Shown piece by piece: positions 21,901 to 24,900 of a stretch of DNA of 27,567 nucleotides. Made by a program: the position numbers. The DNA comes from a virus. Taxonomy: Duplodnaviria > Heunggongvirae > Uroviricota > Caudoviricetes. The stretch is from the IMG/VR virus record IMGVR_UViG_2695420708_000004; one strand, given 5' to 3'. Position 1 is the first letter of the stretch. Each line of letters begins with the position of its first letter.

Positions 21901-24900
21901 CCTGACGGCCCCCACCATTACCAGCGGTGGAAATCCATCGGCATTTTCCCTGACTCCGGACGGAAAGCTGACCGCTAAAAATGCGGATATCAGTGGCAGT
22001 GTGAATGCGAACGCCGGGACGCTCAACAATGTCACGGTAAATGAAAACTGTACGATTAAGGGCATGCTGGAGGCGACTCAGGTCAGAGGTGACTTCGTTA
22101 AAGCTGTATCCAAATCATTTCCGAAACAGGCTGGTACGTGGGGTAACACGGAAACACCAAACGGGACGGTTACAGTCACCATAAGCGATGATCATAACTT
22201 TGACCGCCAGATTATTATTCCGCCCATTATTTTTAACGGTATAGCGTATGACGATCCGGGGAGCGGAAATAACCCAGGAGGCACGCGATACACGGGTTAT
22301 GGTTTTGAAGTTCGCAAAAACGGCGTATTAATCGCATCCAGAGAAACTAAAGGTGCCATTCCCGGTAGTTACAGTGCAGTTATTGATATGCCTAGTGGTG
22401 GTGGTAGCGTCACTCTGGAGTTTAAGATTTTCCAGAAAGGCAATCAGGGGGCAGGCAATATCACCGACTGTACGGTGATTGTGACCAAAAAAGCGGCTTC
22501 CGGCATCAGTATTCGTTGAAATATTTATAACCCCAATAAATGGCGTCAGGAATGACGCCTTTTTTATTGCAGAAAAGCGAGAGGTAATTATGCGTAAAGT
22601 TTGTGCAGCCATTTTGTCCGCAGCCATTTGCCTGGCCGTATCCGGTGCGCCTGCATGGGCGTCTGAACATCAGTCCACGCTGAGCGCGGGGTATCTTCAT
22701 GCCCGGACCAACGTTCCCGGCAGTGATGATCTGAACGGGATTAACGTGAAATACCGTTATGAGTTTACGGATACGCTGGGGCTGGTGACGTCATTCAGCT
22801 ATGCAGGAGACAAGAATCGCCAGCTGACCCGTTACAGCGATACCCGCTGGCATGAAGATTCCGTGCGTAACCGCTGGTTCAGCGTGATGGCGGGGCCGTC
22901 TGTGCGCGTGAATGAATGGTTCAGCGCGTATGCGATGGCGGGTGTGGCTTACAGCCGTGTGTCGACTTTTTCCGGGGATTATATCCGCGTAACTGACAAT
23001 AAGGGGAAAACGCACGATGTGCTGACCGGAAGTGATGACGGTCGCCACAGCAACACGTCTCTGGCGCACTGACGGTTTCATCGTGGGTGTCGGTTATAAA
23101 TTCTGATTAGCCAGGTAACACAGTGTTATGACAGCCCGCCGGTTCAGGCGGGCTTTTTTGTGGGGTGAATATGGCAGTAAAGATTTCAGGTGTACTGAAA
23201 GACGGCACAGGAAAACCGGTACAGAACTGCACAATCCAGCTGAAAGCAAAACGTAACAGCACCACGGTGGTGGTGAACACGCTGGCCTCAGAAAATCCGG
23301 ATGAAGCCGGGCGTTACAGCATGGACGTTGAGTACGGTCAGTACAGCGTTATTCTGTTGGTGGAAGGATTCCCGCCGTCACATGCCGGGACCATCACCGT
23401 GTATGAAGATTCCCGACCCGGTACGCTGAATGATTTTCTCGGTGCCATGACGGAGGATGATGCCCGTCCGGAGGCACTGCGCCGTTTTGAGCTGATGGTG
23501 GAAGAGGTGGCGCGTAACGCGTCCGCGGTGGCACAGAACACGGCAGCCGCGAAGAAATCAGCCAGCGATGCCAGCACATCAGCCCGTGAGGCGGCAACCC
23601 ATGCGACTGATGCTGCAGATTCAGCACGTGCAGCCAGCACGTCAGCCGGACAGGCCGCTTCGTCGGCTCAGTCAGCGTCTTCCAGCGCAGGAACGGCATC
23701 AACAAAGGCCACTGAAGCCTCAAAAAGTGCTGCCGCTGCAGAGTCCTCAAAAAGCGCGGCGGCTACCAGTGCCGGTGCGGCGAAAACGTTAGAAACGAAT
23801 GCGGCAGCGTCACAACAATCAGCAGCCACTTCTGCATCCACCGCGACCACGAAAGCGTCAGAAGCTGCCACCTCAGCCCGGGATGCGTCGGCTTCAAAAG
23901 AGGCGGCAAAATCATCAGAAACGAACGCATCATCAAGCGCCAGTAGCGCAGCTTCCTCGGCGACGGCGGCTGCAAATTCTGCGAAGGCGGCCAAAACGTC
24001 CGAGACGAACGCCAGGTCTTCTGAAACGGCAGCGGGACAGAGTGCCTCAGCTGCGGCAGGCTCAAAAACAGCGGCTGCGTCGTCTGCCAGCGCCGCGTCA
24101 ACAAGTGCCGGGCAGGCCTCAGCCAGTGCCACCGCCGCCGGAAAATCGGCAGAAAGCGCCGCATCATCCGCTTCAACAGCCACAACGAAGGCTGGCGAAG
24201 CCACTGAGCAGGCCACGGCAGCAGCGAGGTCAGCTTCCGCAGCGAAGACATCCGAAACGAACGCGAAAGCGTCGGAAACCCGTGCAGAATCCTCAAAAAC
24301 GGCTGCCGCATCGTCCGCCAGTTCGGCGGCGTCATCGGCATCATCGGCGTCTGCTTCAAAAGATGAGGCGACCAGACAGGCGTCAGCAGCGAAGGGCAGC
24401 GCCACGACGGCATCCACGAAGGCGACAGAGGCTGCTGGTAGTGCGACGGCAGCAGCTCAGAGCAAAAGTACGGCGGAATCTGCAGCAACGCGCGCTGAGA
24501 CAGCGGCAAAACGGGCAGAGGATATTGCATCCGCCGTGGCGCTTGAGGATGCGAGCACGACGAAAAAGGGGATAGTACAGCTCAGTAGTGCGACTAACAG
24601 CACTTCCGAGTCACTGGCGGCAACACCAAAAGCCGTTAAGGCCGCGTATGACCTGGCTAACGGGAAATACACCGCACAGGATGCAACGACAGCACAGAAA
24701 GGGATAATCCAGCTAAGCAGCGCGACCAACAGCACGTCTGAAACGCTGGCGGCAACGCCAAAGGCAGTAAAAGCAGCCAATGACAATGCTGAGAAACGTC
24801 TGCAGAAAGATCAGAACGGTGCGGATATCCCTGGCAAAGACACCTTTACGAAAAATATTGGTGCCTGCCGTGCCTTCGGTGGGTCAGTAAGCACAACAAC

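Follow-up and report, generated by a model that had tools for sequence, protein, structure and literature searches.

The Duplicated Motif of a Lambdoid Side Tail Fibre as Probable Neighbouring Units of a Variable-Number Repeat

Organization of the stf locus

The window (the whole stretch of DNA that was analysed, 27,567 nucleotides of the IMG/VR virus record IMGVR_UViG_2695420708_000004) carries on its plus strand the lambdoid side tail fibre gene stf (23171..26254), identified from the ORF map and the annotation of its relatives. The reading frame itself spans 23165..26254 (+) and encodes 1029 amino acids; it opens at a GTG in position 23165, while homologues begin at the ATG in position 23171. 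The gene order J - lom - stf - tfa, read from the ORF map together with annotated relatives, is the lambda-type arrangement, and Pfam assigns to the protein a phage_tail_N domain, two Phage_fiber_2 stretches and a Collar domain. An IMG/VR prophage contig (L016) is 98.8-100% identical to stf in all ten segments compared.

The N-terminal tail-attachment domain (23171..23572, +; PF08400 phage_tail_N, E = 1.4e-71, aa 3-136) shares 89.8% of its nucleotides with lambda. It is followed by an Ala/Ser/Thr-rich heptad shaft (23573..24544, +), a putative trimeric coiled coil delimited by alignment, composition (A 38%, S 24%, T 12%) and autocorrelation, the latter showing a strong period-7 signal (0.43 at lag 7 versus ~0.18 at other lags); the repeat search finds several repeat families here, with spacings that are multiples of 21 nt. 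The sequence-only reading had described this shaft as longer than that of lambda Stf, which is borne out by an Ala/Ser/Thr-rich insert at nt 24080-24394 (aa 306-410) of 105 residues, or 15 heptads, that is missing in lambda. In published work such a heptad region is named 'PCoil' and its lengths step by 7 (PMC3368898).

Between shaft and distal part lie two repeat units, unit 1 (24548..24679, +; aa 462-505), composed of a core motif at 24566-24646 and an 11-residue linker at 24647-24679, and unit 2 (24680..24811, +; aa 506-549), with its core motif at 24698-24778. A minus-strand ORF over the repeats (24457..24786, 109 aa) is ascribed to the GCN-rich composition of the coding strand, no evidence for a gene having been found. 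After the last unit comes a conserved 16-residue segment containing GADIP (24785..24832, +), which comparison with other fibres and the positions of alignment ends mark as a third recurrent boundary, and which also follows the unit array in P22H4 H and Mu S. The same position begins a middle domain (24785..25345, +) homologous to the variable part of the Mu G(-) fibre (S'), as detected with PDB 8ju3 (overall E = 9.2e-87; 237 bits and E = 2.9e-69 for the stretch on Stf aa 541-727). The gene ends with the Collar domain and a His-rich needle or tip (25550..26251, +) homologous to the receptor-binding tip of T4 gp37, supported by Pfam Collar and by PDB 2xgf (aa 796-1029, E = 1.7e-82); the gp37-like His-rich tip of a lambda-type Stf is therefore present. 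Within the tip, segment comparison and breakpoint bins delimit a hypervariable loop region (25871-26060, +), and in the segment-by-segment mosaic table the tip segment is common only to E. coli Z1323 and the IMG/VR loci L016, L023 and L032.

Downstream of stf, the tail fibre assembly chaperone gene tfa (26254..26770, +) is frameshifted by a 65-nt deletion at 26377/26378, the frame changing after codon 41, so that the intact Tfa of lambda-type Stf systems is lacking. The deletion junction is found also in L023 and is absent from L032. Owing to the frameshift in tfa, the fibre of the window prophage is probably not assembled.

The two motif copies and their repeat family

A 27-residue motif occurs twice in Stf, at aa 468-494 (24566-24646) and at aa 512-538 (24698-24778), which confirms the duplication at a distance of 44 residues (132 nt from start to start) that had been read from the sequence. 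The copies are identical in 25 of 27 amino acids and in 62 of 81 nucleotides (76.5%); the repeat search gives 74% over 107 nt and blastn 77% over 87 nt. The description of the copies as diverged, with many synonymous differences, holds, and the accompanying figure of about 70 percent nucleotide identity was slightly low. At the level of codons there are 15 synonymous and 2 non-synonymous differences, 17 of the 19 base differences fall at third positions, and no identical run exceeds 11 nt. Independent choice of codons for the same peptides is expected to give 70.9 +/- 4.0% identity, which makes the observed 76.5% no unusual value (p about 0.11).

The Pfam family PF03406 matches Stf in two stretches with 125.3 bits against a curated gathering cut-off of 22 (E = 6.3e-37), the better one placing aa 464-504 on profile positions 1-41 of 42; with these values the repeat lies far beyond chance. 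As judged from the sequence, the motif pair consists of neighbouring units of the 44-residue PF03406 (Phage_fiber_2) tail-fibre repeat and is real but ordinary. The pattern of codon differences shows a peptide under strong purifying selection, with synonymous sites between the copies effectively saturated. Because the copies differ synonymously about as far as the peptide allows, neither a recent duplication nor a recent scar would be expected to have left them. Saturation fits great age and selection for dissimilarity alike and cannot separate the two; the synonymous divergence between the copies equals neutral saturation and does not exceed it.

The template and variable repeat pair of a diversity-generating retroelement was also considered for the two copies and rejected, the 19 differences representing nine substitution types that are not adenine-specific and that lie at third codon positions. 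The AlphaFold2 monomer model of Stf aa 455-740 is poor (mean pLDDT 48.9), and the only structures with the unit in their sequence are the Mu S entries 5yvq, 8ju3 and 9ki1 (residues 111-154).

Unit number and breakpoints in related fibres

Units were counted by direct pattern matching, cross-checked with Pfam wherever PF03406 was reported; the Pfam scan of the one-unit Z1323 Stf does not list PF03406, and the motif is plainly there. The search for homologous proteins with the two-unit segment returned nearly exclusively contig-end fragments of at most 190 aa, and the census was taken instead from IMG/VR loci and from a profile search of cluster representatives. In 5,426 complete E. coli genomes ~18,000 stf-like places were located. 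Two units are found in the lambdoid Stf proteins of PhiR68_2, ST70 and SE11, in 30 of 60 E. coli records of a spread sample, and in all 26 Stf-type genes among 80 IMG/VR loci, a sample biased towards arrays of at least two units. H-type genes among the same 80 loci have 2-5 units, and the spacing is 44 aa in every array except one, where the pattern skipped the middle unit. In P2-like H proteins the units likewise follow a period of 44 aa and number two in Wphi, three in P88 and four in P22H4 (PF03406 stretches: four in P22H4, three in the P88-like locus L043, one in lambda). Searching with the unit profile gave hits in 4861 cluster representatives, where P1 S-like proteins had up to 12 stretches and a giant protein had 19; in the protein library the P1 S-like proteins have about 10-11 units by the motif pattern and 11-12 HMMER stretches. 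Between the units of the 150 best library hits the spacing is most often 44 aa (131 intervals counted by motif pattern).

The sequence-only reading had also allowed for an ancient, fixed feature, recognizable by the same two copies in all stf homologues, and this is not what is found: lambda Stf, Gifsy-2, mEp332, Rac stfR and E. coli Z1323, the closest allele in the tip region, have one unit. The Z1323 gene has the same tip as the window stf and is 98.7% identical to it downstream, with exactly 132 nt missing. The first 21 nt of its one unit resemble copy 1 (95%) and the last 60 nt copy 2 (98%); in Z1323 and mEp332 together these last 60 nt are 98-100% identical to copy 2. The alignments show that one- and two-unit alleles coexist in otherwise near-identical E. 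coli stf genes and that they differ by precisely 132 nt, in register. Across those Stf-type genes with two units that were compared, the copy 1 core is 89-100% and the linker 98-100% identical in nucleotides to the window stf, and against P2-like units the same core reaches about 74-80%. On this comparative evidence unit number is shown to be variable, from one to about 12 in related fibres, and the two-unit pair to form a standing allele class. The two-unit state is, by the same comparisons, neither fixed nor a recent joint but a copy-number-variable repeat.

The claim that the motif marks a boundary at which fibre genes exchange modules agrees with the distribution of homology. Myovirus fibres match Stf only from aa 462-471 onwards, homology to lambda Stf is lost directly after the motif, and among the 60 spread E. 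coli records alignment ends cluster at 24639-24652, 24784-24790 and 24831; in six IMG/VR loci the alignments stop at about 24830. The alignments show breakpoints between fibre genes, including those between siphovirus Stf and myovirus H, that sit at the 3' end of the unit cores and after GADIP. Nevertheless, in a breakpoint scan of 40 loci the array region holds only 11 of 272 alignment ends, hot spots flanking the tip (bins 25800-25899 and 26000-26099) being far more frequent. The unit array is one boundary among several and not the main one.

Such a joint is seen in L043, a P88-like H gene with a P2-type N-terminal domain, whose nucleotide identity to stf steps at 24646/24647 from 77.8% over the copy-1 core to 97.9% over 24647-25840; L044, another IMG/VR relative with a P2-family fibre, shares the 97.9% identity over 24647-25840. 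This identity of about 98% documents a recent exchange in which lambdoid stf genes and a P88-like myovirus H gene took part. The linker of the window type characterizes Stf alleles and is unusual for P2-like arrays (about 84%), so that in the L043 comparison the P88-like gene more probably received the sequence.

Origin of the pair and comparison with known systems

The motifs of Stf are very probably neighbouring units of a variable-number tandem protein repeat with a period of 44 aa or 132 nt, PF03406. In this gene the array has the coiled-coil shaft on one side and, on the other, the receptor-binding part at the distal end of the trimeric fibre. Each unit may fold as a module of its own within the trimer, probably a small knob or joint. 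Gain or loss of a unit would then change the length or the flexibility of the fibre and leave the fold intact, and an in-register crossover inside a unit or at its edge would give a functional chimera, which could be why surviving recombinants have their joints at units. Such crossovers may exploit the short stretches in which the conserved peptide keeps the nucleotides identical, through relaxed homologous recombination of the kind that phage Red/Rad52-type enzymes allow. A more far-reaching version, which we consider doubtful, sees the array as an evolved 'universal adaptor': the peptide would be near-invariant across siphovirus, myovirus and phage-plasmid fibres so that in-register crossovers work, neighbouring units would be kept synonymously dissimilar against deletion by homologous recombination, and the number of units (1 to about 12) would set how far the fibre reaches or how flexible its joint is, and through this the host range.

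Earlier, the two diverged copies had been taken to suggest that the C-terminal specificity module was acquired by this gene through recombination, a conclusion that does not follow from a pair that is a standing allele class. In that account the pair is one recombination scar in the recent history of the gene, one copy belonging to the resident Stf shaft and the other having arrived with the incoming C-terminal specificity module. Exactly this architecture would result if a one-unit Stf and a multi-unit array crossed over out of register, and single-unit alleles do resemble the copy-1 5' flank joined to the copy-2 core. Furthermore, against L043 the linker, copy 2 and the module downstream behave as one block, and the variants of the copy-1 core assort independently of those of linker plus copy 2 among Stf alleles. 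We nevertheless hold a scar of this kind to be improbable, for the two-unit form is common and conserved in E. coli records and IMG/VR Stf-type genes alike, beyond Stf genes no donor turned up for copy 1 or for the pair (80% identity for the best P2-like unit), and the recombinant in the L043 comparison is more likely the P2-like gene. The synonymous saturation of the copies makes any such event ancient, the logic of one copy per parent fails for arrays of 2-12 units, and a two-unit cassette with the same linker was largely seen in fibre families that predate lambdoid Stf.

Almost no credence is given to a recent local tandem duplication of the 132-nt unit within stf, by slippage or unequal sister exchange. 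Arrays can grow in this way, given that some P2-like arrays hold identical neighbouring units (within-array maximum 100%), and the 132-nt period is exact and in frame; for this stf, however, the synonymous divergence refutes the event, the identity of the copies not rising above that of independent codon choice, with differences nearly confined to third positions and short identical runs. It is also very unlikely that a fibre-associated DNA invertase of the Cin/Gin/Pin type made the module boundaries beside the repeat by acting at crossover sites, although close relatives have a Pin-type serine recombinase just downstream of tfa and the Mu homologue of the domain that follows GADIP, S', is part of the invertible G segment. 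The Mu Sc/Sv junction, which we take to lie about 20 residues after GADIP, counts on the same side. The change in copy number and the L043 junction are both in register within homologous sequence and therefore bear the signature of homologous, not site-specific, recombination. Invertase-switched fibre genes (Mu G, P1 C, e14 P, p15B Min) have gix, cix or pix crossover sites where the constant and variable parts meet, with a serine invertase next to them. The invertase crossover core AAACCNNGGTTT has no match inside stf with up to two mismatches allowed, and none of the ORFs of at least 30 aa that are complete inside the last ~800 nt (26771-27567) resembles an invertase by eye. An invertase origin of fibre module boundaries was proposed by Sandmeier 1994, as cited in PMC3945230.

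The reading as a variable-number repeat carries little weight as a discovery, the repeat being already known both as a curated Pfam family and as a 132-nt element annotated in the GenBank record of P1, and its practical value is modest. The 3' end of each unit core and the position after ...QNGADIP are fusion points that nature has already validated and that can serve in engineering chimeric Stf or gpH fibres. Both the one-unit and the two-unit form of a fibre that is nearly identical in other respects survive in nature, which bears on lambda-P2 STF chimeras (PMC11338833).

Compared with the family PF03406 Phage_fiber_2 ('Phage tail fibre repeat', IPR005068; 'Pf2' in PMC3368898), the stf copies, both of which cover nearly the whole model, are plain members without any difference. 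Pf2 is known together with phage_tail_N in Stf and in EHEC collagen-like fibres, an internal globule that rotary-shadowed fibres show between their stalks has been interpreted as the Pf2 region, and lambda with a functional stf has 'jointed' fibres (PMC3368898). Lambda Stf (Ur-lambda) and K-12 Rac StfR are like the window stf in the N-terminal domain, the heptad shaft, the gp37-like C-terminal tip, the order J-lom-stf-tfa and the motif flank ALEDA(S/D)TT(K/R)KGIVQL. They differ in having a single unit, and lambda has in addition a shaft shorter by 105 aa and, from the unit to the collar domain, a segment (MDETNRKAPLDSPALTGTP...) unrelated to that of the window stf.

The fibres of the P2 family (gpH of Wphi, P88, P22H4 and IMG/VR relatives) have the same unit and linker peptide in arrays of 2-5 with a period of 44 aa, followed, as in Stf genes, by MDETNKKAPL... 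or by an alternative 18-residue segment. Unlike Stf they are myovirus baseplate fibres with an N-terminal PF12571 and without the Ala/Ser heptad shaft, and their unit cores are only about 74-85% identical in nucleotides to those of the window. The homology of P2 gpH fibres across families was reportedly described by Haggard-Ljungquist et al. 1992, and sharing of fibre modules across families at this motif is said to have been reported in 1992-1994.

In the record of P1 gene S (M81956) a 132-nt 'repeated element a1' is annotated at 1651-1782, in the constant part of the gene and over a unit homologous to that of stf; window nt 24546-24640 align in frame with positions 1661-1755 of the record at 78.9%. 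P1 element a and the stf unit thus have the same 132-nt length, the same peptide and 79% nucleotide identity. The P1/p15B gene S repeated element in M81956 is reportedly the work of Sandmeier, Iida and Arber 1992. P1 S is unlike Stf in its S-type N-terminal attachment domain and in its long arrays, where 44-aa units alternate with 56-aa units, and it adjoins an invertible segment, whereas the window is without one. Mu S/gp49 and S-S' (PDB 5yvq, 9ki1, 8ju3) have one unit (residues 111-154), then DNANARLAKDRNGADIP, and the variable part of Mu S' is homologous to Stf aa 541-727. The Mu fibre differs from Stf in its single unit, in its N-terminus and in the switching of S/S' by inversion of the G segment.

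The tail fibre region

The window carries its genes in the order of a lambda-like late operon (J, a second partial J, lom, stf, tfa). The stf open reading frame occupies 23165..26254 on the plus strand (1029 codons), and the ATG at 23171 corresponds to the start in homologues. Pfam assigns phage_tail_N to aa 3-136, two stretches to PF03406 (Phage_fiber_2, E = 6.3e-37) and a Collar domain to aa 800-847. In addition, homology to the Mu G(-) fibre S' covers aa 541-727 (PDB 8ju3, overall E = 9.2e-87), and homology to the T4 gp37 tip covers aa 796-1029 (PDB 2xgf, E = 1.7e-82). The shaft shows heptad periodicity (lag-7 autocorrelation 0.43) and, as the sequence-only reading had proposed, is longer than that of lambda Stf, the excess being 105 aa or exactly 15 heptads. 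The extra Ala/Ser-rich coiled-coil segment (24080-24394, 315 nt) is consistent with a shaft whose length changes by heptad steps.

The J-lom region is partially duplicated in tandem (16612-23072, junction 20273/20274): a full J (16612..20091) comes first, and a lom'-'J fusion ORF (20159..22519), in which the first 38 lom codons are in frame with the C-terminal ~750 codons of the second J, precedes the second lom. Positions 17864-19652 and 20274-22062 are 98.3% identical, and the C-terminal receptor-binding ends of the two J copies are only about 79% identical. The contiguous lom'-'J junction was found in none of 5,426 complete E. coli genomes; the duplication may be real and provide two J specificities, or may be a join made in assembly. 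In lom (22590..23072), an 83-nt deletion at 23066/23067, between two CTGGCG direct repeats, leaves a protein of 160 aa (199 aa in relatives); it is a natural variant, because the IMG/VR locus L016 has the same junction. In tfa, the gene of the fibre assembly chaperone (26254-26770), a 65-nt deletion with its junction at 26377/26378 shifts the frame after codon 41, and with tfa disrupted the prophage probably cannot assemble the side fibre. The IMG/VR locus L023 shares this junction. L032, apart from that 100% identical to the window, lacks it.

The two copies and the number of units

The motif reported to occur twice in stf is indeed present as copy 1 (24566-24646, aa 468-494) and copy 2 (24698-24778, aa 512-538), both on the plus strand and 132 nt apart from start to start. 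The copies agree at 25/27 residues and 62/81 nt; their codons show 15 synonymous and 2 non-synonymous differences, and all but two of 19 base differences fall in third codon positions. They are diverged, as had been claimed, although the proposed identity of about 70% was slightly low (74-77%, depending on the span). When codons for both peptides are drawn independently from stf's own codon usage, the expected identity is 70.9 +/- 4.0%, and the 76.5% observed does not exceed it significantly (p about 0.11). Together with the longest identical run of only 11 nt, this indicates that conservation acts at the protein level and that both copies are ancient when measured against the synonymous saturation time, which makes it unlikely that the pair is the scar of a recent recombination. 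Recent tandem duplication of the stf unit is excluded by saturation of synonymous sites. Elsewhere, arrays can still grow by duplication, since some P2-like arrays contain identical adjacent units.

The copy pair is neither fixed nor a recent joint; unit number varies. Both copies would be expected in all stf homologues if the pair were a fixed feature, and this is not what is found. A single unit is present in the Stf of Ur-lambda and Gifsy-2, in mEp332 and in the Stf of E. coli Z1323, whose gene has the hypervariable tip of the window, is 98.7% identical downstream and lacks exactly 132 nt; PhiR68_2, ST70 and SE11 have two. Among 60 E. coli records, evenly spaced among the 3726 matching, 30 have two units, 16 have one unit followed by the same sequence (K-12 Rac stfR among them) and 11 diverge directly behind the first core. 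Non-lambdoid fibres carry longer arrays of the same unit with the same linker peptide, ending in (S/T)T. The H genes of Wphi, P88 and P22H4 have 2, 3 and 4 units, and Pfam reports 4 PF03406 stretches in P22H4, 3 in the IMG/VR locus L043 and 1 in lambda. H-type genes among 80 IMG/VR loci have 2-5 units, and the spacing in those loci is 44 aa with one exception, where the pattern missed a middle unit.

The unit profile matches 4861 cluster representatives in a library of 1.84 billion proteins. Proteins matching the two-unit segment (P0001-P0120) are mostly 'partial' tail fibre fragments, their contigs measuring about 200-570 nt. PF03406 is missing from the Pfam scan of the one-unit Z1323 Stf, although the motif is present at aa 457-500, which calls for caution with domain-count censuses. 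We think that when E. coli and Salmonella prophages are assembled from short reads, the conserved multi-copy repeat may routinely cause breaks.

Over the first 21 nt of the core, the single unit of Z1323 and mEp332 resembles copy 1 (95%), and its last 60 nt resemble copy 2 (98-100%). One in-register event near ...GIVQL|SS..., either a deletion or an insertion, sets it apart from the two-unit form. In Z1323, and likewise in lambda, informative sites across the switch run 1-2-1-2, a pattern that speaks against the one-unit form having arisen from a window-type sequence by a simple recent deletion.

Mosaic boundaries and exchange with an H gene

Several independent comparisons place the unit array at a mosaic boundary. 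Myovirus fibres resemble the window Stf solely from aa 462-471 on, and lambda Stf is collinear over the shaft and its single unit, then unrelated up to the collar domain. Alignment ends from the E. coli sample cluster at 24639-24652, where the copy-1 core has its 3' end, at 24784-24790, directly behind the copy-2 core, and at 24831, behind ...QNGADIP. A ten-segment identity table shows semi-independent assortment among alleles of the N-terminus, shaft, copy-1 core, linker with copy 2, GADIP segment (the conserved segment behind the last unit), Mu-S'-like domain, collar, tip and C-end. Other boundaries exist beside the array: when 40 close loci were scanned, just 11 of 272 alignment ends fell in the array region, and the sharpest clusters inside stf lie in the 25800-25899 and 26000-26099 bins, on either side of the gp37-like tip's hypervariable loop region (25871-26060). 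Of the loci examined, only Z1323, L016, L023 and L032 have the window's tip variant. The breakpoints at unit edges uphold the proposal that the motif is an exchange boundary between fibre genes; that the two copies mark the acquisition of a C-terminal module by stf is not supported.

Two IMG/VR loci, L043 and L044, join a P2/P88-type N-terminal domain (PF12571) to three units. Relative to the window, their copy-1 core is 77.8% identical and the stretch from 24647 to 25840 is 97.9% identical, the last dense mismatch lying at 24646 and the next at 24688; their distal segments are 98-100% identical to stf in nucleotides. This likeness indicates a recent exchange of fibre modules between siphovirus and myovirus, with the joint exactly at the boundary between unit core and linker. 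The other Stf-type two-unit genes compared keep the window-type linker at 98-100%, and in P2-like arrays, L043/L044 excepted, its identity is about 84%; the simplest reading is therefore that the P88-like gene was the recipient, taking linker, copy 2 and distal module from an Stf-type gene, and not the reverse. In L043, the P88-like (Peduoviridae) H has linker, last unit and distal receptor-binding module at about 1300-2495.

Mechanism and known repeats

The comparisons establish strong peptide constraint, in-register change of unit number, breakpoints at unit edges and recent sharing across families. Each unit is probably an independent module of the trimer, lying where the heptad coiled-coil shaft passes into the distal part; crossovers that hit such modules in register would yield foldable chimeras, so that joints there would survive selection. 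The Pf2 region has been interpreted as an internal globule between stalks (PMC3368898), and the same paper recalls that lambda fibres are 'jointed' when stf is functional. For mosaics that combine lambda with the Rac/Qin stf-tfa regions, one documented source is relaxed homologous recombination by phage recombinases (PMC3945230). Invertase-mediated exchange, the published alternative according to the citation of Sandmeier 1994 in PMC3945230, finds no support in the window: the invertase crossover-site core is absent from stf, and no invertase-like ORF was seen by eye in the last ~800 nt. The AlphaFold monomer model is unreliable (pLDDT 48.9), and Mu S is the only protein with PDB entries carrying the unit.

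The stf pair is a plain member of the curated repeat family PF03406. The largest arrays occur elsewhere: P1 S-like proteins have as many as 12 profile stretches, and one giant protein has 19. In the P1/p15B S-like proteins P0121-P0123, about 6-12 units of 44 aa and 56 aa alternate regularly, the 56-aa unit having the linker ...YDLAAGKAPSSHTHPWNQITGVPTASLTA and the 44-aa units another. GenBank record M81956 of P1 already annotates the same element, as 'repeated element a1' of 132 nt, over the homologous unit.
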